A program made the translations under genes and the position numbers. Source: an uncultured Candidatus Sumerlaeota bacterium (GTDB lineage: Bacteria > Sumerlaeota > Sumerlaeia > MVZB01 > JAJFLK01). Taken from it: 64,000 bases of DNA. Under the pieces are notes generated by a model. It did not search any database, was not told the DNA's origin, and was given only the letters and a program-made list of their open reading frames with translations. The DNA lies in assembly GCA_964463045.1 (NCBI GenBank), contig CAYXAU010000007.1, forward strand, positions 39,916 through 103,915, read 5' to 3'. Shown one piece after another: positions 20,855-56,612 of this stretch (position 1 is its first letter; each line of letters starts with the position of its first letter).

Positions 20855-21805
20855 ATGCTTCTCGGTCAGATCACCATGAAGCAGTTGTTGGAGGCGGGGG
20901 TCCACTTCGGCCACCAGAGCCGGCGCTGGAACCCCAAGATGAAGAAGTACATCTACACGGAACGGAACCAGATCTACATCATCGATCTGAAGAAGACGCT
21001 GCGCCTGTTGAGGGAAGCCTATTCCTTCGTCAGGGACGCCGTGGGCGATGGGGGGATGGGGGTGTTCATCGGGACGAAGAAGCAGGCCAAGGACGCGATC
21101 GAGCGGTGGGCGCACTACTGCGGGATGTATTACGTCAATAACCGCTGGCTGGGAGGCACGCTGACGAATTTCGCGACCGTGCGGAAGTCCATCAACCGGA
21201 TGATCGAGCTCCAGGCCATGGTCGCCGACGGCTCGATCGAACGCTACTCGAAGAAGGAGCAGAGCCGCCTGCTCAAGGAGAAGGAGAAGCTGGAGAAGAA
21301 TCTCCAGGGCATCCGGGACATGGATCGTCTGCCGGCCTTTATCTTCGTGATCGACCCGTCCAAGGAGCAGATAGCCGTCCATGAAGCCAACATCATGGGC
21401 ATCCCGGTGGTCGCCGTCGTCGACACCAATTGCGATCCCGATCCGATCGACTACGTGATCCCCGGCAACGACGACGCCATCCGTTCGATCAATTTGAGCT
21501 GCGAGAAAATGGCCGAAGCCTGCATCGAGGGGAAGCTCTCGCGCGTTGATCAGGGTCTGGAGCCGTACGATTCGTTGCCCGAGGCCGCCCGCCAATTCCT
21601 GGCCCAACAGGAAGCCGAGCGGGCCGGCGCCCCCGAAGAAACAAACCTGGCCGGCGCCGCTCCGGCGCCGGCCTCGCCGACGGCCCGTCCGGCCGGTCTG
21701 ATGGCTCCCGTGCCGGGCGACGCCGAAGCCGGCGGAGCGGCCGCGGGCGTGCCGGCTCCTTGGGCGGCCCCGCCGTTTGGGGGACCCCCGTCCGAGGGGT
21801 CCTAA
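20855..21805 (+). CDS. rpsB: 30S ribosomal protein S2 with Ala/Pro-rich C-terminal extension
   Basis: [27 protein letters not shown], nearly identical in pattern to bacterial S2. RBS GGGAGGTGA. About 60 extra low-complexity residues at the C-terminus. Confidence 0.95.
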
Positions 21806-28305: not shown

Positions 28306-31300
28306 TTAATCGGCGTTGACGGCTCCGTTCACGTCGGGCCGGTCGCGACCGAGCCCCCCGCGCTTCCAGACGGCGAAGATGGCCGGATAAACGGTCAGTT
28401 CGAGTAAGAACGAGGTGAGCAGGCCGCCGACCATCGGGGCCGCGATGCGCTTCATGACGTCGGCTCCCGTCCCGGTGCTCCACATCACCGGCAGAAGACC
28501 GATAAAACTCGTCAGCACCGTCATGAGCTTCGGGCGGATCCGGCCGGCGGCCCCCTCGACGATGGCCGCTTCCAGATCGGCGAACGTCCGCAGGGTCCCC
28601 TCGGCCGCGCGGCGCCGATGAGCCAGCGTCAGATAGAGGAGCATGACGACGCCCGTCTCGGCGTCCAGACCGGCCAGGGCGATCAGCCCCACCCAGACGG
28701 CCACGCTCAGATTGTAATTCAGCAGATACAAAAGCCAGACGGCGCCGATGAGCGAGAAGGGAACGGCGAGCAGAACGATGAACGTCTCGACGACCGATCG
28801 CGTGTTGAGGTAGAGGAGAAAGAAAACGACTAGCAGGGTGGCCGGGACGACGATTTGGAGCCGGGCCTTGGCGCGCTCGAAGTATTTGAACTGGCCGGAC
28901 CACTCCAGGCGCGTCCCCGGCGGCAGCGCGACGCGCTCGGTCACGACCCGGCGGGCCACGTCCACATAGTCGGCGATACCCATCCTCACGACGTCGACGA
29001 AGACGTACCCCAGAAGCTGGCCGTCCTCGCTGCCGATCATCGGCGGCCCGACGCGGAACTCCATCCGCGCCAGTTGCGCCAGCGGCACTTGCGCCCCCGA
29101 AGGCGAGGCGACCAGCACGCGCTTGAGCGCCTCCGGGTCCTCGCGGAAATCGCGCGCGTAGCGGACGTTGATCGGGAAACGCTCGCGTCCTTCAATCGTT
29201 TCGCTGACGTTCTCCCCGCCGATGGCGGCCAGGATGACGTCGTTCACGTCGCCGACGGTGAGGCCGTGGCGGGCCGCTTCCCGCCGGTCCACGTCGAAAT
29301 CCAGGTAATAGCCGCCGGTGACCCTTTCGGCGAAGGCGCTGCGCGTGAAAGGCCGCGTCCTCGCGTCTTCGAGCAAGGCCCGCTCGACGCCGACGGCCGT
29401 CGCCTCGATCGATTCCAGGTCCGGGCCGAACACTTTGACCCCCAGCGGGCTCCGGATGCCCGTGGCGAGCATCTCCGTCCGCGTTTGGATCGGCATCCAC
29501 CAGATGTTCGGCATGCCGGGATAGCGCAATTCCTCGTCCATTTCCTGAATGATGCTGTCCCAGGTCAGGCCGGGCCGCCAGGCCTCCGGGGGCTTGAGCG
29601 TGACGACGGTCTCGACCATGGACATCGGGGCGGGGTCCGTGGAGGTCTCGGCGCGGCCGATCTTCCCGAAGACCGACTGCACCTCCGGGAAGCGCCGCAG
29701 CCGCTCATCCATGGATTGCAGGATGGCCGTCGCTTCGGTGGCGGAGACGCCCGGCAGGGCCGTCGGCATGTAGAGGATGGAACCCTCGTTAAGCGGCGGC
29801 ATGAACTCGTTGCCCAGCCGCATGAAGGCCGGGACGGTCAACCCCATCGCCGTGAGGGAGAGCGCGATCACGAGCCACCGATGGCGGACGACGAGACGGA
29901 CGACCGGCGAATAAAGCCAGATCAGGAGACGGTTGAGCGGGTTGCGCTCCTCGCGGCGGACGCGGCCGCGGATCATCAGGGCGGCCAGCGCCGGGGTCAA
30001 CGTGACGGCGAGCCCCGCCGCGAACGCCATCGAGTAAGTCTTGGTAAAGGCAAGCGGCCGGAACAGCCGGCCCTCGGTTCCCTCCAGCGTGAAAACCGGC
30101 AGGAAGGCGATCGTGATGACCAGGAGGGAGAAGAAGATCGTGGGGCCGACCTCCTGCATGGCCCCGATCACGACCTCCCGGCGCGGTCCGGCGGCCGGGG
30201 CGGCCGTCTCCAAGCGCTTATGGATGTTCTCGACCATGATGATCGAGGCGTCCACCATCGCCCCGATCGCGACGGCGATGCCCGCCAGGGACATGATGTT
30301 GGCCGTCAGCCGCTGCTCGACCATCGGGATGAAGGCCAGGAGGACGGCGATCGGCAGGGCGACGATCGGGATGAGCGCCGAGCGGGCGTGCATCAGAAAA
30401 ACGATGATCACCAGGCTGACGACGAGCATTTCTTCCAGCAGCGCGCGCCGGAGCGTGTGGATCGACCGCCGAATCAGCTCGGAGCGGTCGTAGACAATCA
30501 CCACCTCCACGCCCTCCGGCATCGAGGCGCGCGCCTCTTCCAGCCGCGCCTTCACGCGCTCGATCACGCGCAGCGCGTTCTCCCCGTAGCGCATGACGAC
30601 GATCCCGCCGACGGTTTCCCCTTCGCCGTTCAGCTCGGCGATGCCCCGCCGCGTCTCGGGGCCGATCTGCACCGTGGCCACGTCCTTCAGATAGACGGGC
30701 ACGCCCCCTTCGCCGGTCATCAAGGGGATCAGTTCCAGATCCTCCCGGGACCGGATATAGCCGCGGCCGCGCACCATCTGCTCGTGTCCCGCCAGCTCCA
30801 GAACGTGCCCCCCGACGTCCTGATTCGACCGGCGGATGGCGTGGATCACCTCTTGCAACGGAATGTCCAAGGCCAGGAGCTTGTTCGGGTCGACGGTCAC
30901 CTGATACTGCTTGACGAATCCGCCGACGGAGGCGACCTCGGCCACCCCCTCGACGCTTTCGAGCCAGTAGCGCAGGCGCCAATCCTGAAGGGCCCGCAGC
31001 TCGGCCAGGTCGTGGCGGCCCGTCTTGTCCACCAGCGCGTATTGGAAGACCCACCCGACGCCGGTGGCGTCCGGCCCGAGGGTGGGCGTCACGCCTTCGG
31101 GCAGCCGGCCGGCCAGGGCGCTCAGGTATTCCAAGACGCGGCTCCGCGCCCAGTAAACGTCCGTTCCGTCCTCGAAGATGACGTAAATGAAGGAAAGGCC
31201 GAACGCCGATTGCCCTCGGACGTAACTGACGCGCGGGGCCGCCAACAGCGACGAGGCGATCGGATAGGTGATCTGGTCCTCGACGAGGTCCGGGCTCCGG

Positions 31301-31500
31301 CCGGGCCACGCGGTGAAGATGATGACTTGCGTGTCGGAGAGATCGGGAATGGCGTCCAACGCCACGCGGCCGACCGACAGCCAGCCCCAGAGCACGAGCC
31401 CGCCGACGGTAAAGAGCGTCAGAAAGGGATTCCGGGCGCAATGGCCGATCAGTTTCTGAATCGGCCCGAGCGGAGGTTCCCAGGTTGAAGACATCCTCAC
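28306..31500 (-). CDS. cusA: Heavy-metal efflux RND permease (CusA/CzcA family)
   Basis: 1064 aa and 12 TM helices. HME-RND family features include a methionine cluster region and conserved charged residues in TM4. It is last in a three-gene minus-strand operon with the adaptor and OMF. Confidence 0.9.
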   Translation of the reverse strand: MRMSSTWEPPLGPIQKLIGHCARNPFLTLFTVGGLVLWGWLSVGRVALDAIPDLSDTQVIIFTAWPGRSPDLVEDQITYPIASSLLAAPRVSYVRGQSAFGLSFIYVIFEDGTDVYWARSRVLEYLSALAGRLPEGVTPTLGPDATGVGWVFQYALVDKTGRHDLAELRALQDWRLRYWLESVEGVAEVASVGGFVKQYQVTVDPNKLLALDIPLQEVIHAIRRSNQDVGGHVLELAGHEQMVRGRGYIRSREDLELIPLMTGEGGVPVYLKDVATVQIGPETRRGIAELNGEGETVGGIVVMRYGENALRVIERVKARLEEARASMPEGVEVVIVYDRSELIRRSIHTLRRALLEEMLVVSLVIIVFLMHARSALIPIVALPIAVLLAFIPMVEQRLTANIMSLAGIAVAIGAMVDASIIMVENIHKRLETAAPAAGPRREVVIGAMQEVGPTIFFSLLVITIAFLPVFTLEGTEGRLFRPLAFTKTYSMAFAAGLAVTLTPALAALMIRGRVRREERNPLNRLLIWLYSPVVRLVVRHRWLVIALSLTAMGLTVPAFMRLGNEFMPPLNEGSILYMPTALPGVSATEATAILQSMDERLRRFPEVQSVFGKIGRAETSTDPAPMSMVETVVTLKPPEAWRPGLTWDSIIQEMDEELRYPGMPNIWWMPIQTRTEMLATGIRSPLGVKVFGPDLESIEATAVGVERALLEDARTRPFTRSAFAERVTGGYYLDFDVDRREAARHGLTVGDVNDVILAAIGGENVSETIEGRERFPINVRYARDFREDPEALKRVLVASPSGAQVPLAQLARMEFRVGPPMIGSEDGQLLGYVFVDVVRMGIADYVDVARRVVTERVALPPGTRLEWSGQFKYFERAKARLQIVVPATLLVVFFLLYLNTRSVVETFIVLLAVPFSLIGAVWLLYLLNYNLSVAVWVGLIALAGLDAETGVVMLLYLTLAHRRRAAEGTLRTFADLEAAIVEGAAGRIRPKLMTVLTSFIGLLPVMWSTGTGADVMKRIAAPMVGGLLTSFLLELTVYPAIFAVWKRGGLGRDRPDVNGAVNAD

Positions 31501-33125
31501 CAGGCCTCCACCGCCGCCTTGAGCTTGCTCTCGGCTGCGATCAGGAAGTTGGCCGACGTGACGACGACCTCTCCCTCCTCCAGCCCTTCGAGCGCCTCGA
31601 CGCGGTCCGCCGTCCGGACACCGACGCGGATGGGGCGGGGTTTGAGCCGGCCGCCGCCCAGATCGACGAAGACGAGCCGGGTCTGGCCGGCGTAAACGAC
31701 GGCGCTTTCCGGCACGACCAGGCGCTCCCCGAGGGGCCGGGCCAGCTCCACATTGGCGTACATGGCCGGCTTAAGCGCCCCATCGGGGTTGGGGGTGATC
31801 AGCCGTACCCGTCCCGTGCGCGTCGTGGGGTCCAGATACGGGTAGATATAGGCGACTTCGCCCGCGAAGCGACGGTCGGGTAGATAGGAAAGCGTGATCT
31901 GCGCCCCCAGCCCGGGCTTGACGAGCGGCACCTCGAACTCATAAACGTCGGCTTCGACCCAGACGACGGACAGATCGGCCAACCGATAAAGCAACCGGCC
32001 CGGCTCAACGGCGCTCCCCTGGACGATATTCTTCTCGATGACCACGCCGCCGACGGGCGCGCGGATCGGGACGTATTCCCAGGCCCGACCGGCGCGCGCA
32101 ATCTCCTCCAGCACGTCTTCGCCGATGTCCCACAGGCGCAGGCGGCGGCGCGAGGCCTCGACCAGCCGGGATCCGCGGGCTGCGTTCTCCCTCGCCTCGC
32201 CCAGCGCGCGCAGATATTCCTCTTGGGCGGCCAGAAGCTCTGGACTATAGATCGTGAAAAGCGTGGAGCCGGCCTCGACGCGCTTGCCCGTGTAATCGGC
32301 CTCGACTGCGCCGATCCAACCGCCGAACTTGAGCGTCACATCGGCTAGCCGGGTCTCGTCGTAGGCGACGCGGCCCACGGCGCGGATCACGGCGGTGAGC
32401 TCTTCGCGTCGCGCGGAGGCGGTTTTGACGCCAATCAATTGGCGGCGGCCTTCCTCGACGACGATCGCCCCGACGCGCAGCTCTTCGCGCGTGACGGGGG
32501 TCAGGTCCATGCGGCAGATGGGGCACGTGCCGGGCTCGGCGGATTTGACTGAGGGATGCATCGAACACGTGTAGTAAGCGACGCCGCCCTCGGCCCCCTC
32601 CCCGCCGGAACCCGTGGCCGAGATGACCGTCAGCCCCTTGAGCCGGGGAGCGAGCGTCATATCCAGGTCGGCGTGACCCTGCTCGGGGTGCTCGACGCGC
32701 CCCCTGAGATTCCAGGTTCCCCGCATGGAAAGCTCGAAGGCGGCCCGGTATCGGCCGGGGGGGGTCTCCTCAATCTCGGCGGCCGATCGCATCTCCGGCA
32801 TGCTCCCCATGGCCGCCATCACGGCCTGGAATTCGACCCGTACGCCGGCCAGAGGTGACCCCGCCCCATCACGCACGGTCAGGACGAGCGCGTTCTCGCC
32901 CACGACCGGAGGGTCGGGCGCCAAGGCGGCCTCGATTACGAACGGGCCGGCCGGGATGGTCTGGGCCTCGCCGATGGCCTCAGAGGCTGAACGGCCGCCG
33001 AGGCCGGCCCATTCCAGAGGCAGGACCGAGAACCAGTCGGCAAGCTGCGACCGATAGACGGCCCCAGCGACGAGCAACGCGACGATCACCAGCAACGAGG
33101 GGATCGATCCGATCAGTCGTTTCAT
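31497..33125 (-). CDS. cusB: RND efflux periplasmic adaptor (CusB-like) with heavy-metal-binding CxxC domain and an extra N-terminal beta-rich domain
   Basis: YYTCSMHPSVKSAEPGTCPICRMDL is the HMBD found in CusB/Cu-ATPase N-termini. The membrane-fusion-protein barrel/lipoyl regions follow. About 150 aa upstream of the HMBD are an additional domain. Confidence 0.8.
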   Translation of the reverse strand: MKRLIGSIPSLLVIVALLVAGAVYRSQLADWFSVLPLEWAGLGGRSASEAIGEAQTIPAGPFVIEAALAPDPPVVGENALVLTVRDGAGSPLAGVRVEFQAVMAAMGSMPEMRSAAEIEETPPGRYRAAFELSMRGTWNLRGRVEHPEQGHADLDMTLAPRLKGLTVISATGSGGEGAEGGVAYYTCSMHPSVKSAEPGTCPICRMDLTPVTREELRVGAIVVEEGRRQLIGVKTASARREELTAVIRAVGRVAYDETRLADVTLKFGGWIGAVEADYTGKRVEAGSTLFTIYSPELLAAQEEYLRALGEARENAARGSRLVEASRRRLRLWDIGEDVLEEIARAGRAWEYVPIRAPVGGVVIEKNIVQGSAVEPGRLLYRLADLSVVWVEADVYEFEVPLVKPGLGAQITLSYLPDRRFAGEVAYIYPYLDPTTRTGRVRLITPNPDGALKPAMYANVELARPLGERLVVPESAVVYAGQTRLVFVDLGGGRLKPRPIRVGVRTADRVEALEGLEEGEVVVTSANFLIAAESKLKAAVEAW

Positions 33126-33127
33126 GG

Positions 33128-34570
33128 TTAATCTCCTTCCTGAGACGGACGCGCCTCAATGGGCCCGCCGACGGCCCGCTCAAGGTCCGCCTCGCGTTGG
33201 AAATACTCGGCCAGGGCCTGACGTCGATTCAGTTCAAGGGTGAGAAGCTTGCGCTCGGCCTCGATCAGCGTGGCCCGGTCGCTCCGGCCCGCCTCATAGT
33301 TGGATCGCGCCGTGGCCAGGGCCTCGCGCGCCGGGGGCAGAAATTGAGCGTCATACAGGTGAATCACGTGGCGGCTCTCCTGGAGCTGATCGAACGCCAG
33401 TTGCACCTCCGCCTCCAGCTCCCGGCGCATCTGCTCAAGTTCGGCGGTCAGGCGTTCGAGCCGGGCGTGAGCCTCTTCCTCAGCGGCGCGCCGGCGCCGC
33501 CGCTGGATCGGAATGTTGAAGCCGAGCCCAATCATGGGCCGCAGCTCCCGCACGTCCCAGAAAGCGTCATAAGCGGCCATCAACGTGAGATCAGGAAAGT
33601 ATTCCTTGCGCGCGAGCGCGACGTCAGCCTCTGCGGCCCGGAGCCGCGCTTCCAGCGCGCTCAACTCCGGGCGGCGGCTCAGGGCCACGGCCCGCAGCGC
33701 TTCGGCCGCCGGAGATTCGGCCTCCGGGATCTCCACCAAGGGCGGTGGGGGCGGGAACGCAAGCTCCGGCGATTGATTCAGCAGGGCGCTCAGGCGGGCC
33801 TCCGCATTTTTGCGGAGGCGATCCAGCGACAGGCTCCGGTGGCGAACATGGGCCAGCTCGATCTCGGCCTCCAAAGCGTCTTCCTTCGAGCCCAGCCCGG
33901 TCTCATAGCGGCTCCGGGCATTGGCCAGCAGCTCCTGCGCCAGCGCCGATTCCCTCTGATTGATGGCCTCGGCTTCGTGGACGAACGCCAACTCGAAATA
34001 GGCGAGTTTAGTCTCGTGGATGAGCTTCTGGCGGGCGGTCTCCACGTCCTCTCCCGCCGCTTCAGCTTCCTCCAGGGCCGAGCGCCCGCGCAGCCGCAGC
34101 TTCCCCGGCCAGGGCACCCGTTGGGAAAGGTCCAGCCGATAGGCCACGTCCAATCGTTCCCCCATTTCCGTCCGTGGCCGATCCAACGTCTTCGGCCCGA
34201 CCATGCCGGAGATCATGGGGTCCTCCAAAGAAATCACCTGCGGATAACGGGCCACCGCCTCGCGCCAGGCCTGACGCATGGCTTCGAGCGATCCGTTGCG
34301 CGCCAGGACCGTCTCGATCAGCCCGTCGAGGCGAAGAGCCGACCCGGCCAGGGCCGGCTCGCTCTGCCCGGGCGAGGGGCTGGACCCGAGCGGCCGGGTC
34401 TCAGCCCACGTGGCCGAACCCGGCTCCTCCCAGGCACGGGCTCGCAGGGTCTCGTAACGTCCATCCGGCCGCGCGCAACCGGTGGCCATCAATAAACCGG
34501 CTAAAACCCAAGGAACTTGTTGTCCGCGTTTGGCGTTCCGCATCTCGCCCTTCCTCATCCTTCGTTGCAA
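33128..34570 (-). CDS. cusC: Outer-membrane efflux lipoprotein, TolC/NodT family (CusC-like)
   Basis: Lipobox (LMATGCA) and two OEP repeats with coiled-coil periodicity. It is located upstream of the adaptor and RND pump. Confidence 0.8.
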   Translation of the reverse strand: MQRRMRKGEMRNAKRGQQVPWVLAGLLMATGCARPDGRYETLRARAWEEPGSATWAETRPLGSSPSPGQSEPALAGSALRLDGLIETVLARNGSLEAMRQAWREAVARYPQVISLEDPMISGMVGPKTLDRPRTEMGERLDVAYRLDLSQRVPWPGKLRLRGRSALEEAEAAGEDVETARQKLIHETKLAYFELAFVHEAEAINQRESALAQELLANARSRYETGLGSKEDALEAEIELAHVRHRSLSLDRLRKNAEARLSALLNQSPELAFPPPPPLVEIPEAESPAAEALRAVALSRRPELSALEARLRAAEADVALARKEYFPDLTLMAAYDAFWDVRELRPMIGLGFNIPIQRRRRRAAEEEAHARLERLTAELEQMRRELEAEVQLAFDQLQESRHVIHLYDAQFLPPAREALATARSNYEAGRSDRATLIEAERKLLTLELNRRQALAEYFQREADLERAVGGPIEARPSQEGD

Positions 34571-35252: not shown

Positions 35253-35448
35253 CCGGAGAGTTTAACCCTGACGCCGCCGAGCCCGCCAGCGGAATCTTCG
35301 CCCTCGACGGGTCCGGCGACCGGCGGGCGAGGCGGGCCATTCCCTTATGGAAGCGGGGATTTCCAATTCGATAGGATGGACCCTGGGGCGGGCGTGTTCA
35401 TTCTCCGGAAGCCGGACGGGGCCGCAGCGGAGACTCAAATCAGGCGAA

Positions 35449-36297
35449 ATGTTGGCCAAACGGATCATCCCTTGCCTCGATGTCAAAGACGGCCGGGTCG
35501 TCAAGGGCGTCCGCTTCGTCGATCTGATCGACGCGGGCGATCCCGTGGAAGCAGCGGCCGCCTATGACGCCGCCGGGGCCGATGAGCTCGTCTTCCTCGA
35601 CATCACCGCCTCCAGCGACGGCCGAGAGATCATGGCCGACGTCGTCCGCCGCACCGCCGATCGCGTCTTCATGCCGACGACCGTCGGGGGAGGGCTCCGC
35701 ACCGTCGAGGACGTTAACGCCATGTTACGGGCCGGGGCCGACAAGGTCTCGCTCAACACGGCGGCCGTCCAACGACCGGCGTTGATCGGCGAGGCCGCGC
35801 GCCGGTTCGGCTCGCAGTGCATCGTCGTCGCCATCGACGCCCGGCGGCGGGACGCCGCCGACCCGACCCGCGGCTGGGAGGTGTTCACGCACGGAGGACG
35901 CACGCCGACGGGGCTCTCGGCGCTCGAATGGGCCCGAGAGGCCGAGCGGCTGGGCGCCGGCGAAGTCCTCCTGACCAGCATGGATTGCGACGGCACACAG
36001 GCGGGCTATGACCTCGAACTGACGGCCGCCGTGGCCGACGCCGTCTCCATCCCCGTTATCGCCTCCGGCGGCGTCGGGAATCTGGAGCATCTCTACGAGG
36101 GGCTGACCCGCGGAAAGGCCGACGCCGTGCTGGCGGCTTCGATCTTTCACTTCGGGCAATTCACCATCGTCGAGGCCAAACGCTACCTGGCCCGCCGGGG
36201 AGTGTGCGTGCGTCCGGTCCGGCGGCCAAGGACGCGCCGTCTCACGGACGGACCCGGCGGCGCGGCCCTGGACCGCCCCCGAGGCCGCGCGGCTTGA
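35449..36297 (+). CDS. hisF: Imidazole glycerol phosphate synthase cyclase subunit
   Basis: [22 protein letters not shown]......GDPVE.A..Y...[10 protein letters not shown]. Basic ~30 aa C-terminal tail. No other his genes are adjacent. Confidence 0.9.
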
Positions 36298-36375
36298 GCC
36301 CGGGCGGCCTGCCTCAGATTTCTCCCGATCCACCGCCGCAGGGCCTCCGCGGCCCCGGCCCCAGCCGCGCAGCCC

Positions 36376-37563
36376 GTGGGTGAACCCATCCGCATCGCCT
36401 ATATGATCGGTTCCATGCGACGCGGCGGCGCCGAAGGCCAGGTCGTCGAGCTGCTGCGGCATTTCAACCAGGGCGACTTCAGGGCCTCGCTCTATCTGCT
36501 GGCCGAAGCGGGAGAACATCTGGAGACGGTCCGCGCGATCGGCGCGCGCGTCCGCGGCTTCGACTTCGAGCGCCGCCACCGTTGGTATGATCCTCGGCTC
36601 GGTTGGCACGTCTTCAAGACCGTCCGGCGCATTGAAGCCGCCCTCGGCGAGGACCAGCCCCAGATCTTTCACGCCTTCCTTTACTGGGCCAACGTCCTGG
36701 GGGCGTGGGCGGCCTCCCGGGCGCGCGTTCCCTGCGTCATCGCGAGCCGACGGAGTCTGGGTTTTTTCAAGGACGGCCGGCCCTGGCTCCAAAGCCTGGA
36801 GAACTGGGCGAACGGCCGCGTCCATCGCGTAACGGTCAATTCGAAGGCGGTGCTGGAGGACGTGCTCGCCCGCGAGCGGATCCGGAGCGAGAAAATCCGC
36901 CTCATTCACAACGGGGTCGCCGTTGAAGCGACGCCGCGTCCGGAGGAAATCGCCCCCTTCCTCCGGAACCTGGGCCTTTCGCCTGAAAGCCGGGCCGGGC
37001 TGAGTCTGATCGTCTGCGTCGCCAACCTCATCCATTATAAAGGGCATCAGACGCTGATCGAGGCGATGGCCGAGGTGGTCCAAGCCCTCCCGAACGCCCG
37101 ACTGATCCTCGTCGGGCGGGACGGCGGGATGGAGGCGGCTCTGCGCCGCCGCGTGACCGAGTTGAACTTGGAGCGCGCGGTCATCTTTGCGGGGCCCCAG
37201 TCGGCGCTTCGACCCGTTTACGCCGCCGCCGATCTGGTCGTCCTTGCGTCGGATGAAGAAGGCTTCTCCAATGTGATTCTGGAAGCCATGGCGGCAGGCC
37301 GGGCCATCGTCGCCACGGCGGTCGGCGGCGTCCCCGAAGCGATCGAGCACGGTCGCCAGGGGTTGCTCGTCCCCCCCCATGATCCGACGAGCCTCGCCCG
37401 CGCCATCATTGAAGCCTTGCGGGAGGCCGGGCTGCGGGCGCGGCTGGGGATGGCCGCGCGCGAACGCGCCTCGGGCGAGTTCTCCCTCGATCGCATGCTG
37501 GCGGCTCATGAGGCGCTTTACCGCGAGTGCCTGCAGTCGGCCGCCGGGGGGCCTCACGCCTGA
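36376..37563 (+). CDS. Glycosyltransferase family 4 (GT-B, retaining)
   Basis: N-terminal RIAYMIGSMRRGGAEGQVVELL Rossmann start. C-terminal GT4 EX7E-type region (EGFSNVILEAMAAGRAIVATAVGGVPE). Confidence 0.8.
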   Translation: MGEPIRIAYMIGSMRRGGAEGQVVELLRHFNQGDFRASLYLLAEAGEHLETVRAIGARVRGFDFERRHRWYDPRLGWHVFKTVRRIEAALGEDQPQIFHAFLYWANVLGAWAASRARVPCVIASRRSLGFFKDGRPWLQSLENWANGRVHRVTVNSKAVLEDVLARERIRSEKIRLIHNGVAVEATPRPEEIAPFLRNLGLSPESRAGLSLIVCVANLIHYKGHQTLIEAMAEVVQALPNARLILVGRDGGMEAALRRRVTELNLERAVIFAGPQSALRPVYAAADLVVLASDEEGFSNVILEAMAAGRAIVATAVGGVPEAIEHGRQGLLVPPHDPTSLARAIIEALREAGLRARLGMAARERASGEFSLDRMLAAHEALYRECLQSAAGGPHA

Positions 37564-52815: not shown

Positions 52816-53844
52816 TCACTCCTCGACAGTCTTGAGCTCGAAGGCGTTCAGGAAGAAGCCAAGATCGCGCGGATCGTCGAGCCCGGCCTCGAGCTTGGGG
52901 TTCCAGATCGCCTCAAGTTCGAAGCGGAACAGATAAATCCCGCCGTCAAGAACGCGAGGCAGGGCAACATCGATGGTCGCGTGCTCGAACGGCTCGACCG
53001 TGAAGCGCGTCTGTTGAGCCCCAGCAGGGCCCGCGATCGTCAGCCGCACCACGCGAGATGCAATGGCCTGGGGCAGAAACCCATGCAACCGGAGCCCACT
53101 GTAGCGTTGATGCTCCGGTAGAGGGAGTTCGATCTCAAAGACCCGCTCCGTCCATCGATAATCGGCCGACGGAGGTCCTTCGGCCCGGAAAAACCCCGAC
53201 CGAAGGAAGTGTTGATCCCCAGCTGCCCCAACGTCGAGGAACAACGAGCCGAGCACGGCCAGGCTCAGCCGCTCCGCGTTCGCCGGCTGAGCGCTGACCC
53301 ACACCACGGCCACTCGAGGTCCGGCCTCCCAATCTTGCCCCGGAGAGGGGACGTAACGTGAGGGCAACCGGAGGGTCACGCCGGCCTCGTCCCGGCCTGG
53401 GGGCGCAAGAGCGCCCAGCAGCCTCTCGCCGGACCGCGCGGGAGCCCGAAGCGTCGGTCCGCCCGCCACGGCGTACTCGATGACTTCTCCCTCGGCCGGC
53501 TCAGACAGGTGAAGCCCCAGGAAGATGACGGTATATCGCGATCGCATGGCTTCGGGGAGGGGAAGGGCGATCGTCTGATCCTCGGCCGCCAGGCGGAGGC
53601 CCCGCTGAACGGGATGCGTGGGATGCGGCCATCCGGGCGGATGGACGAGCGGCCTCAGGGCCGGACCATCCCAAAGGCGGGGAGTCGGTTCTGGCATCAG
53701 CCGGAGAGGCTCCTCAGCGGGCGCAACAAGCGGGAGGAGACCCAGGGCCGAAAATGTGGCCCGCATCGTCAGGTCCTTCCGAAGCGAGCGCCGTCGGGGG
53801 TGCATGACAGAGGCACTTTGGGGCGGGGCGACAGCCACTGTCAA
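52816..53844 (-). CDS. Hypothetical secreted protein
   Basis: Probable start at MRATFSALGLLPLVAPA (signal peptide). No recognisable domain. It is located upstream of the SBP on the same strand. Confidence 0.4.
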   Translation of the reverse strand: MTVAVAPPQSASVMHPRRRSLRKDLTMRATFSALGLLPLVAPAEEPLRLMPEPTPRLWDGPALRPLVHPPGWPHPTHPVQRGLRLAAEDQTIALPLPEAMRSRYTVIFLGLHLSEPAEGEVIEYAVAGGPTLRAPARSGERLLGALAPPGRDEAGVTLRLPSRYVPSPGQDWEAGPRVAVVWVSAQPANAERLSLAVLGSLFLDVGAAGDQHFLRSGFFRAEGPPSADYRWTERVFEIELPLPEHQRYSGLRLHGFLPQAIASRVVRLTIAGPAGAQQTRFTVEPFEHATIDVALPRVLDGGIYLFRFELEAIWNPKLEAGLDDPRDLGFFLNAFELKTVEE

Positions 53845-53925
53845 TACGCCTTCAGCAGGGGGGGAGAAGCCTCACCCAATGAGATCGGCCATAGAAGTCT
53901 GGAACCAATTTGAGACTCAGTTTTC

Positions 53926-53938
53926 GTAAATGATATGG
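53926..53938 (+). promoter_or_regulatory. AT-rich Fur-box-like element in the divergent promoter region upstream of the Fur-family gene
   Basis: GTAAATGATATGG resembles half of the GATAATGATAATCATTATC Fur-box consensus. It lies in a locally AT-rich 160-bp divergent intergenic region. Confidence 0.2.
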
Positions 53939-54004
53939 GGTCCAACGAAAGCGCTTGCGAACGGGTCCGTTGGCGCGTAACCTTGAAACAGAGGCGTTTA
54001 GGCC

Positions 54005-54601
54005 ATGTTGGAAGAAGAGCAAAACTCAGGAACCCAGACGGCTGAGTCGCGTCGACTTGGGATTCAGGGCTTCGCCCAGTTTCTAAAGCGTTTTGGCTAT
54101 TTTCTGAAACTGCGAGGTCTAAGCCTGACCAGAGAACGCCAGCAGATCCTGGAGAAGATTTGCGACCTTTCCGGGCGGTTTACGGTTGATGACCTGTTCT
54201 TCGCCCTTCATGCCGCCGGCAGACGCATCAGCAAAGCCACCATCTACCGCACCGTCCAGTTGCTCCTGGAATGCCGGATCATCCGCGAGACGCCTCTGGG
54301 GGCGCGCCAGGGGGTCTACGAGCTGGCCGACGCCGGCCATTATCATGGCCACATGGTCTGCCAGCACTGTCACCGGCTGATCGAGTTTGGCGGGCCGACG
54401 CTGGAACGATTCGTCCACGAGGCCTCCGTCAGTCACCAGTTCCTGCCGCTCTCGGCGCAGATCAAATTCCTCGGCTTCTGCAACGAGTGCGTCAAGGCCA
54501 ATCCCCCGGCCCTGCGAGAACAAACCTGCGTCCCGTTCCTCAAGTACGCCCAAAGCCGTGAGGGAGCCGAACCCAAACCCGCCGAGGCGCCGGAGAATTG
54601 A
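54005..54601 (+). CDS. Fur-family metalloregulator (Fur/Zur/PerR type)
   Basis: N-terminal wHTH (LTRERQQILEKIC.....FTVDDL.......ISKATIYRTVQLL). Metal sites HYHGHMVCQHCHR and CNEC (structural Zn CxxC...CxxC). Confidence 0.85.
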   Translation: MLEEEQNSGTQTAESRRLGIQGFAQFLKRFGYFLKLRGLSLTRERQQILEKICDLSGRFTVDDLFFALHAAGRRISKATIYRTVQLLLECRIIRETPLGARQGVYELADAGHYHGHMVCQHCHRLIEFGGPTLERFVHEASVSHQFLPLSAQIKFLGFCNECVKANPPALREQTCVPFLKYAQSREGAEPKPAEAPEN

Positions 54602-54732
54602 CCCCGCGCCGGGCGCAAGGCGTTCAAGGGCGGCGTTCCGGCCGGGCGGCCGACGCGCGGCTCGCCGCGGCGGTCGCTCTTGCTTCCCCTGGGCAGCCTA
54701 TCGTCGGCGATCACCCTTGAGGCCTCTCAACG

Positions 54733-55518
54733 ATGGGCGACCTGAGCGAGTTCCCCCTAAGCCTTCGCGTTTTTCTGAAGGCGTATCCGTGGCGGCGAGT
54801 CGACCCGGTGCCTTGGGCGCCGCTGGGCAAGCCGCTGGCGCGGTGCCGCTTGGCGCTGGTTTCGAGCGCCGGCTTTGTCCGGCCCGGTCAGCCCCCTTTC
54901 GACGACTCCCGTCGAGGCGGGGACCCCACCTTCCGCCAGATCCCCGCCGAGACCGACGTTTCGACGCTCATCGACTGCCACCGGAGCAAGGCCTTCGATC
55001 ACAAGGGGCTGCGGGAGGACCCCAACCTGGCCTTCCCGCTGGACCGGCTGCGCGAGTTGGTCGAGGCAGGGCGGATCGGATCGCTCAACGGGCGGCATCT
55101 TTCCTTCATGGGGTCCCTCACCGTCGTAGGACCCTTCATCAAGGAGACGCTGCCGGAGGCGGCCGGCTGGCTGGTTACCGACCAGGTCGATGCCGCGCTG
55201 CTCGTACCGGTCTGACCGATGTGCAACCAGGCCGTCGGCCTGGCCGCCGCCGAACTGGAACGCCGCGGCATCTCGACCGTGACCCTTCAGCTCCTGCGCG
55301 AGGTTGCCGAGCGCGTGCGTCCCCCGCGGGCTCTCTTCGTTCCCTTTCGTCACGGTTATCCATTGGATAGTCCCGGCGATCCGGCCCGCCAACGGGCGGT
55401 CATTGAGGCGGCCCTCAAACTGCTTGAAGACCCGGCGCTCAGCCCGCCGGGGCTGGTGGACTACGCGCCTGGGGCGGTCGATGACTGCGGCGAGCCTGGC
55501 CCCGCGGCGGCATCGTAG
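54733..55518 (+). CDS. Candidate selenoprotein, glycine/betaine/sarcosine/D-proline reductase selenoprotein-B-like C-terminal domain; in-frame TGA (Sec) at 55213-55215
   Basis: ORFs 54733..55215 and 55219..55518 share a frame and are separated only by TGA, yielding ...ALLVPV-U-PMC-NQAVG... (UxxC). The patterns LALVSSAGFV, HKGLREDPN, ELERRGISTVTL and FVPFRHGYPLDSPGD resemble the GrdB/PrdB C-terminal region as recalled from memory. A hairpin lies 11 nt after the TGA. Confidence 0.5.
55227..55243 (+). other. SECIS-like hairpin immediately downstream of the in-frame UGA
   Basis: CCAGGC-CGUCG-GCCUGG (6-7 bp GC stem, loop containing G and U) begins exactly 11 nt after the UGA, matching the spacing of bacterial SECIS elements. 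Confidence 0.3.
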
Positions 55519-56612
55519 ACTTCGATCAGTTGGTCAGCCTGCCGGCGGGGGTCGCAGTGGGTCAGCACCCATCGGCGCCCCTCGGCGGCCATCGTCTTCA
55601 TCTCCTGCCGATGATCGAGCGCCCAGACCAGAGCCGAGTGGAGCGCCGGAGCGTCGTTGACCGGGACGAGCAGCCCCGTGCGCCGATCCTCGACGATCTC
55701 ACGATTGCCCGCGCAATCGGTCGAGATGACGGGAACCTCCATGGCGAGAGATTCGCGCAAGACGCCGGAAAGCCCCTCGCGTTCGACGGCCGCAACGACG
55801 GTGAACTCGGCGATCGAAACGAAACGGGGGACATCCGTCTGGTGGCCCACGAACCGACACCGATCGGCGATCCCGAACATCTGGGCAATCGGGCCAATCC
55901 GTTCGGGCACCCCCCGACCGAGAAAGATCGCGTAGACGGCGGGGCGCGCGGCCATGACCTCGGCCATGGCCTTCAGCAGGCACCCCAAACCCTTGGCCTT
56001 TCGATAAGCCGACAGGCTGACGAGCAGTCGGGCATCGTCGGGCAGCCCCAACTCGCCCCTGAGGGTCACATCGGGCGGACGGGGGGCGAACCGTTCCGGG
56101 TCGACGCTACCATAGACGACTTTCGTCTTCCGACCCAGGCCCGGGACAGCCCGTTCCAGGGACTCCCGCACGGCCTCGGCCACGGCGACGATGGCGCGCG
56201 TGCGCGAGGAGGCGAAGACCCGCCGCATCCGCCCTTCAAGCGGCTTCTCGGTGCCCCGCTGCGCCACTAAGGTCGGACGCCGAAGCCCCCACAGGGCCCA
56301 CCAGGCCGCCCACAAGGCTTCGTCCCGATGGGCATGGAGAACGTCGGCCCGGACCCGTCGGGCCTCGGCGCGCAGTTTCCACCAACCCCGCGGATGCGCC
56401 AGATCCACAGCCCCCACCTCGATCCCGCCCTCCCGGAGCGGCTCCCAGCTATCCCAATCCTGCCGCCGTCGCTTGAGCGAAGCCTTGGGGTCGAGATTGA
56501 CGACGACGCGGACTTGGTGGCCCAGGCGGACCTGAGCCGTCGCCATCCGGATCAGTTGGACGGCCCCGCCTCGATGAACGCCAAAATGACTCGCCACGTG
56601 AACAATGCGCAT
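55461..56612 (-). CDS. Glycosyltransferase family 4
   Basis: MRIVHVASHFGVHRGGAVQ is a GT4 N-terminal Rossmann start. The C-terminus has E...E (EGLSGVLRESLAMEVPVISTDCAGNREIV). The 200-codon upstream extension in the ORF track (to 57212) is rejected. Confidence 0.8.
   Translation of the reverse strand: MRIVHVASHFGVHRGGAVQLIRMATAQVRLGHQVRVVVNLDPKASLKRRRQDWDSWEPLREGGIEVGAVDLAHPRGWWKLRAEARRVRADVLHAHRDEALWAAWWALWGLRRPTLVAQRGTEKPLEGRMRRVFASSRTRAIVAVAEAVRESLERAVPGLGRKTKVVYGSVDPERFAPRPPDVTLRGELGLPDDARLLVSLSAYRKAKGLGCLLKAMAEVMAARPAVYAIFLGRGVPERIGPIAQMFGIADRCRFVGHQTDVPRFVSIAEFTVVAAVEREGLSGVLRESLAMEVPVISTDCAGNREIVEDRRTGLLVPVNDAPALHSALVWALDHRQEMKTMAAEGRRWVLTHCDPRRQADQLIEVYDAAAGPGSPQSSTAPGA

Follow-up and report, generated by a model that had tools for sequence, protein, structure and literature searches.

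The window, meaning the whole 64-kb stretch of DNA analysed here, very probably carries at 54733..55518 (plus strand) a single gene for one selenoprotein of the PrdB/GrdB (Pfam GRDB) family. The predicted gene is complete: it starts at ATG 54733, has an in-frame UGA as its candidate selenocysteine (Sec, U) codon at 55213..55215 (plus strand; U161), ends at TAG 55516-55518 and encodes a PrdB-like protein of 261 amino acids (aa). According to the sequence, the list of open reading frames (ORFs) and the frame translation, ORFs 54733..55215 and 55219..55518 lie in the same frame with a single TGA (55213-55215) between them, as an earlier, preliminary description of the locus had stated. The TGA is followed by CCG ATG TGC and the frame then stays open until the TAG. 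The read-through product has the U-P-M-C motif reported in that description; around the Sec it reads ...DAALLVPV-U-PM-C-NQAVGLAAAELERRGIS..., the motif continuing as PV-U-PM-C-NQAVGL. The partner of the Sec in this motif is Cys164 (cysteine, Cys; codon TGC, 55222..55224, plus strand), whose column is nearly invariant in our alignments A1 and A3.

In the public gene calls the selenoprotein gene is represented by two proteins, a 160-aa N-terminal part (P0012) and a 99-aa C-terminal part (P0121), which are stored separately; the mis-call of the TGA that the preliminary description foresaw has therefore taken place. Fusing both ORFs restores the 261-aa protein. Most relatives in public protein sets are split in the same way and stored as two pieces, a 160-aa fragment and an orphan ORF with ~85-100 aa. 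The TGA and the neighbouring genes are identical in four independent assemblies (L001-L004). GC content at the three codon positions of the N-terminal part is 0.71/0.49/0.85, typical for plus-strand genes of this window of 67% GC, and by its GC pattern a 211-aa ORF on the minus strand (54757..55392) resembles a non-coding antisense (shadow) ORF. At their 3' ends the selenoprotein gene and a convergent GT4 glycosyltransferase gene (55461..56612, minus strand) share 58 nucleotides (nt; 55461-55518).

Among 5.8 billion proteins searched, 2766 relatives were found, in two length classes: full-length proteins of 247-286 aa, and a far larger group whose members have 160 aa, exactly as many as the N-terminal ORF encodes. 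Alignment A1 contains 17 full-length homologues (58-69% identity over the whole length), and in all 17 the TGA column is Cys, within PV-C-P-x-C-NQ. The C-terminal tail of the window protein is ~14 residues longer than that of most homologues. The species-representative genomes of GTDB were also scanned; they gave at least 565 loci, of which the best 80 were kept. Among these 80 the column is TGA in 78 and TGC in two, so that orthologues have either Sec or Cys at this position, the two states that the preliminary description had in view. The hosts include Acidobacteriota, Verrucomicrobiota, Desulfobacterales, Binatia, Myxococcota, Brocadiaceae and Nitrospirota, as well as Gemmatimonadales, Spirochaetales, Gammaproteobacteria and others, at least 10 phyla in all. 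As an unbiased check, the N-terminal 160 aa alone were compared with 1.84 billion cluster representatives, which gave 1322 relatives. Counted from the table, ~96 of the ~102 top representatives whose match reaches the last residues of the query stop there and six continue; since so many end at the Sec residue, Sec is the dominant state in the family.

Three loci show variations on this arrangement. In Verrucomicrobia bacterium AV2 (QHPW01000286.1, L063:1917-1928) there are two in-frame TGAs, giving PV-U-PM-U-NQ, a UxxU motif with the same hairpin after it; one hairpin would need to serve two UGAs that are 9 nt apart. At L073:6481-6525 AGC replaces TGC, giving UxxS (PV-U-PM-S-NQ), and the otherwise nearly invariant resolving Cys is missing. 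A Candidatus Binatia metagenome-assembled genome (MAG; L027) has two copies of the gene (6481 and 10664) ~4.2 kb apart on one contig, both with TGA and hairpin.

The sequence beyond the TGA is under selection as protein-coding sequence. In 72 Sec-form loci the 70 codons after the TGA are all free of in-frame stops, and in the 71 loci with sequence up to the next stop the frame extends 83-131 codons past it. The three codon positions have nucleotide diversities of 0.226/0.139/0.573 downstream and 0.267/0.208/0.616 upstream of the TGA; the variation is dominated by the third position and purifying selection is equal on the two sides. All public gene callers treat the TGA as a true stop and the 99-aa ORF 55219..55518 as a separate gene starting at its own ATG, 3 nt past the stop. 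This ATG is the 'M' of U-P-M-C, and no ATG, GTG or TTG is present at the 'M' codon in 25 of 78 distinct Sec-form sequences (the codons found there include TTC, ACG, CTC, ATA and ATT); the independent start that the preliminary description had considered for two separately conserved genes is missing from these. Homologues of the Cys form each consist of one polypeptide, the profiles of PrdB and GrdB span the junction, and two genes would leave a covarying hairpin with an invariant GU (described below) without a role. A pseudogene, or an assembly error that created a nonsense codon, has nothing in its favour beyond the stop codon itself and is refuted by comparative data: besides being identical in the four independent assemblies, the TGA occupies one and the same column in 78 species, and the sequence after it is under purifying selection. 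The open downstream frame, the selection acting on it and the missing start codons together rule out both models; we regard two separate genes as extremely unlikely and attach practically no likelihood to a pseudogene or assembly error.

A GC hairpin starts 11 nt after the UGA (spacer 55216-55226) and occupies 55227-55243, where the preliminary description had placed it, and comparative data support its assignment as a SECIS (selenocysteine insertion sequence) element. The core consists of 55227-55232 paired with 55238-55243 (CCAGGC/CGUCG/GCCUGG) and is capped by an apical loop, 55233-55237 (CGUCG), that contains the invariant G55234 and U55235. Two lower pairs, G55223-C55247 and C55224-G55246, give an extended form; the element as a whole is placed at 55223..55247 (plus strand) from pair conservation and the invariant loop GU. 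Pairing was evaluated by explicit pair counting in a gap-free alignment of the 45 nt from the TGA in 73 sequences (A2), taking stem columns 11-12 and 14-20 as partners of 26-32 and 34-35 (nine pairs). Standard pairs are found in 97.5% of the cells, compared with 18-46% when the 3' partner is slid by 1-3 columns, and double-sided changes occur in 43 cells, a value reached by none of 500 shuffles. At pair 19-27, 36 sequences have A-U and 31 have G-C; at pair 15-31 the counts are 52 for C-G, 11 for U-A and five for U-G. Each of these two pairs joins a non-synonymous first position (Ala/Thr, Val/Ile) to the synonymous third position of another codon, which indicates a constraint on the RNA and not on the protein. 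G22 and U23 of the apical loop are the same in 78/78 sequences, and positions 21 and 24 co-vary (C/G in 70, G/C in five, A/U in one, C/C in two), which suggests a closing pair that displays GU as a two-base platform; in the window these positions are C/C. The loop is formed by a Val codon (GUG or GUC) that is invariant in the Sec forms, whereas the Cys forms have Met, Ser, Ala or Val at this residue. Five distinct Cys-form DNAs keep 5-8 of the nine stem pairs. Remnant hairpins after Sec-to-Cys conversion are described in a passage of Zhang et al. (2006; PMC1794560), and two of our Cys-form DNAs likewise retain such remnants.

The closest known parallel is the SECIS of Escherichia coli fdhF, a 17-nt stem-loop at nt 15-31, 11 nt from the UGA, in which G23 and U24 of the loop are essential for SelB binding (reviewed in PMC8659212). 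Both elements lie inside the coding sequence, with the core hairpin at nt 15-31 counted from the U of the UGA and GU in the apical loop. They differ in that no equivalent of the bulged U17 is evident here, that the loop here is CGUGN rather than GGUC (although five of our sequences do carry GGUC) and that the GU is one nucleotide nearer the UGA. Rfam neither confirms nor rejects the SECIS: the whole window gave no match at the gathering threshold, and permissive scanning of 55180-55300 yielded nothing beyond a chance match to a miRNA on the minus strand.

Several observations weigh against a Sec-inserting hairpin and a functional selenoprotein at this locus. The fold energy of the hairpin alone is not exceptional in sequence of 67% GC: folding of 55205-55275 (71 nt) gives z = -0.67 and a minimum free energy structure that lacks the hairpin, which is regained in shorter folds at ~-15 kcal/mol (38 nt, z = -0.99; 29 nt, z = -2.14). 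The single sequence therefore leaves the matter undecided and comparative data are needed; it is these that raise the hairpin above chance. RNAalifold alone, run on the 73-sequence alignment, gave just 4/9 pairs. The contrast between Sec and Cys forms is one between the Sec forms and five distinct Cys-form DNAs only, two of which keep 8/9 pairs. The window copy is somewhat weaker than the consensus: 55226/55244 is an A.C mismatch, and the loop positions that co-vary are C/C. ARAGORN finds no tRNA in the 64-kb window, and only ordinary tRNAs, none of them tRNA-Sec, in 84 related loci; SelA, SelB and SelD are not among the genes scanned in the window (Pfam on 28 predicted genes and, from 46 kb onward, the Pfam annotation of contig L001). 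Finally, the gene has no conserved partner: all-against-all clustering of the ORFs within ~6 kb in 76 neighbourhoods gave no cluster common to more than 16 of them.

The lack of Sec machinery in 64 kb and the two deviations of the window hairpin are also what could be cited for a UGA that is read through here without Sec, by Cys or Trp mis-incorporation or after loss of the Sec trait, in which case the product would not be a selenoprotein. Lineages without Sec decoding are, however, expected to have TGC or TGT at this codon, as L060, L061, L085, L087 and L089 do, and the six core pairs and the GU of the hairpin are intact in the window; such read-through strikes us as highly unlikely. If Sec is inserted, as we favour, the gene implies Sec decoding in a Sumerlaeota-like organism. 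The preliminary description had taken the genome to be PVC-like, an affiliation that is not supported: the nearest named relatives of ribosomal protein S2 (20855-21802) are all Candidatus Sumerlaeota/BRC1, at up to 75% identity, and the window therefore probably belongs to that phylum.

For family placement the fused protein was scored with Cys at the TGA. It matches Pfam GRDB (PF07355), to which the preliminary description had pointed, with 35.9 bits (38.1 bits for the 160-aa N-terminal part; gathering cut-off 22). The NCBIfam model of PrdB (TIGR04483) aligns across the TGA, residues 27-233 to profile positions 19-220 of 238 (E 1.5e-29), and its score of 103.1 bits is far below the equivalog cut-off of 300. 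Scores for the GrdB-type models are also well below their cut-offs [42.1 versus 602.2 bits (TIGR01917), 37.3 versus 65.45 bits (TIGR01918)]; the matches to GrdF, GrdB and GrdH are weaker and confined to the C-terminal halves of the models, only positions 200-421 of 431 being covered in the GrdB profile. Judged from these profile scores, the protein is a member of the GRDB superfamily with the architecture of PrdB, and it is an equivalog of neither PrdB nor GrdB. The preliminary description had proposed a GrdB-like protein without the N-terminal half. The homology to GRDB is borne out, but in architecture the protein corresponds to PrdB (~240 aa, covered by TIGR04483 from end to end) and not to a truncated GrdB.

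Like PrdB of Clostridium sticklandii and Clostridioides difficile, the window protein is in the ~240-260 aa size class, is homologous to it from end to end and has the Sec position in a UxxC motif (PMC13188914), encoded by a UGA that is followed by a hairpin. Unlike PrdB, it has no prdA, prdC or other prd gene adjacent to it in the neighbourhoods examined here, and the hosts of its relatives are mostly not amino-acid-fermenting clostridia. With GrdB, GrdF and GrdH it shares a Pfam GRDB score above threshold, the UxxC motif and alignment across the Sec position; it differs from GrdB (~430 aa) in the absence of the N-terminal ~200 residues and in that no grdA, grdE, grdC or thioredoxin gene is nearby. 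The absence of GrdA, GrdE and thioredoxin partners had been noted before for this window and extends to every locus examined, none of which has a PrdA, GrdE, GrdA, PrdC or thioredoxin gene near the selenoprotein gene.

The protein could nevertheless be a genuine PrdB, working in a Stickland-type D-proline reductase whose PrdA and PrdC are encoded elsewhere in the genome. TIGR04483 is its best NCBIfam match and covers nearly the full length, the Joint Genome Institute label on homologues is 'D-proline reductase (dithiol) PrdB', and passages of the selenoproteome papers discussed below place the group under PrdB. On the other side stand the score of 103 bits against an equivalog cut-off of 300 and the fact that no PrdA-like partner is found within ~6 kb in the 76 neighbourhoods, on three Cys-form contigs or in the window. 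Moreover, the hosts include Acidobacteriota, Verrucomicrobiota, Binatia, Myxococcota and Nitrospirota, which to our knowledge are not Stickland fermenters. Known prd genes, by contrast, sit clustered, as in the prdB-prdC operon (PMC13188914, where the chemistry of D-proline reductase is summarized in part). We consider a genuine PrdB clearly improbable. 'PrdB-like orphan selenoprotein' (UxxC) would on these comparisons be a better label than 'proline reductase', because the branch departs from PrdB both in score and in gene context. The low PrdB score, the lack of prd neighbours and the non-clostridial hosts suggest that the substrate is probably one other than D-proline.

The PrdB/GrdB family has been known to contain selenoproteins since 2005, and the gene described here is a mis-annotated member of it, a fairly ordinary correction of annotation that leaves the knowledge of Sec recoding itself unchanged. 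A search of the literature gave no paper mentioning both Sumerlaeota and selenocysteine, so that this is apparently the first member noted in a Sumerlaeota-like genome. The family itself is far from the rarity that the preliminary description had suggested. Passages of the Sargasso Sea survey (Zhang, Fomenko and Gladyshev, 2005; PMC1088965) and of the Global Ocean Sampling (GOS) survey (Zhang and Gladyshev, 2008; PMC2398784) name 'proline reductase PrdB' (pfam07355, UxxC) as one of the most abundant selenoprotein families of the environment, with 42 Sec forms and one Cys form in the former and 235 Sec and 110 Cys forms in the latter; a passage of Zhang et al. (2006; PMC1794560) gives the PrdB label in Anaeromyxobacter and Geobacter uraniireducens as well. 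The group in these passages resembles ours in the Pfam family, the UxxC motif, the richness in Sec and the non-clostridial hosts, and is most likely the same branch, matched here by descriptors and not by sequences. The difference is one of treatment, as the passages deal with the group as PrdB and do not set apart an orphan clade without PrdA. A selenoprotein that is abundant and phylogenetically broad has thus been filed as 'PrdB' for twenty years, yet it scores below the PrdB cut-off and has no conserved partner. Sec is kept by well over 90% of the lineages sampled from the orphan clade, which come from at least 10 phyla; that Sec is so very much commoner than Cys suggests that the selenol matters for catalysis. 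There is, in our estimate, an even chance that the clade is an autonomous selenoenzyme that is not a proline reductase, with its own substrate, a distinct substrate site of polar residues and no pyruvoyl partner.

No solved structure related by sequence or by specific fold was found. In the AlphaFold model of the Cys homologue P0001 (68% identical; predicted local distance difference test score, pLDDT, 91) residue 161 lies between a strand (154-158) and a helix (162-177); U161 and C164 would by this model be located at a strand-helix junction in a Rossmann-like alpha/beta fold. Outside the motif, the invariant polar residues are HRS 83-85, D89, D96, N98, R105, S128, N165, Q166 and R199 (RPPRAL segment), while H90, D104 and H122 are nearly invariant. 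So many invariant polar residues favour an enzyme that has a defined substrate site over a generic disulfide oxidoreductase.

These features can be combined into a possible sequence of events. The mRNA hairpin at 55227-55243 (extended, 55223-55247) would display its GU-containing apical loop and, while the UGA at 55213-55215 occupies the A site, would recruit SelB-GTP-Sec-tRNA(Sec), leading to insertion of selenocysteine in place of termination; the hairpin has features that SelB recognizes, and dependence on SelB in this organism is presumed. The established chemistry of the PrdB and GrdB subunits consists of an attack by the selenol on substrate that is bound to the pyruvoyl subunit, with the selenoether resolved by the nearby Cys. 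The U161-P-M-C164 motif, at the start of an alpha-helix, may cycle between the selenol/thiol and selenenylsulfide forms as in those subunits. We hold this redox chemistry to be less certain than the presence of one selenoprotein gene.

A 198-aa regulator of the Fur family is encoded upstream of the selenoprotein gene (54005..54601, plus strand), at a distance of 131 nt. It matches Pfam FUR (PF01475; E 8.8e-20, 71.5 bits, cut-off 23.1) and is below the cut-offs of the NCBIfam Fur, PerR, Zur and Irr equivalogs. The family assignment made in the preliminary description is therefore upheld, but its proposal of metal- or peroxide-responsive control is not: a tblastn search with the Fur protein against 80 other loci shows that the adjacency is restricted to the window's own lineage, and an adjacency that is not conserved provides no evidence for such control. 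The Fur-family gene is a neighbour, and its membership in the selenoprotein system is not supported. The sole other case among the 80 loci comes from a Verrucomicrobiota MAG, where an unrelated gene of the Fur family (L021:5885-6265; 24% identity to that of the window) lies just downstream of the orthologue. No Fur-box-like palindrome is present in 53840-54740, and no matches to a sigma-70 promoter were found. The gap between the two genes contains an imperfect GC-rich inverted repeat (54630-54661) with 15-nt arms that are 73% complementary and no T tract.

Around the orthologues, the neighbours include an alpha/beta-hydrolase cluster and clusters of Liv-type ABC transporters, each in at most 16 loci, several of which are Desulfobacterales MAGs; the neighbours on the three Pfam-annotated Cys-form contigs are unrelated. 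Beyond the convergent GT4 glycosyltransferase gene the window continues with polysaccharide-related genes. Among other TGAs of the window, the only recoding candidate with a strong coding signal on both sides, at 36295, was rejected, as it separates hisF from a distinct glycosyltransferase gene; these two adjacent genes (35347-37563) are in one frame, the TGA and 78 nt apart. On the minus strand, 28306-34570 encodes a three-gene resistance-nodulation-division (RND) efflux system of the heavy-metal type, consisting of an AcrB-family pump, a fusion protein of the CusB/HlyD type carrying YtkA and HMBD domains, and an ORF of 480 aa that, by position and appearance, is a putative outer-membrane factor.

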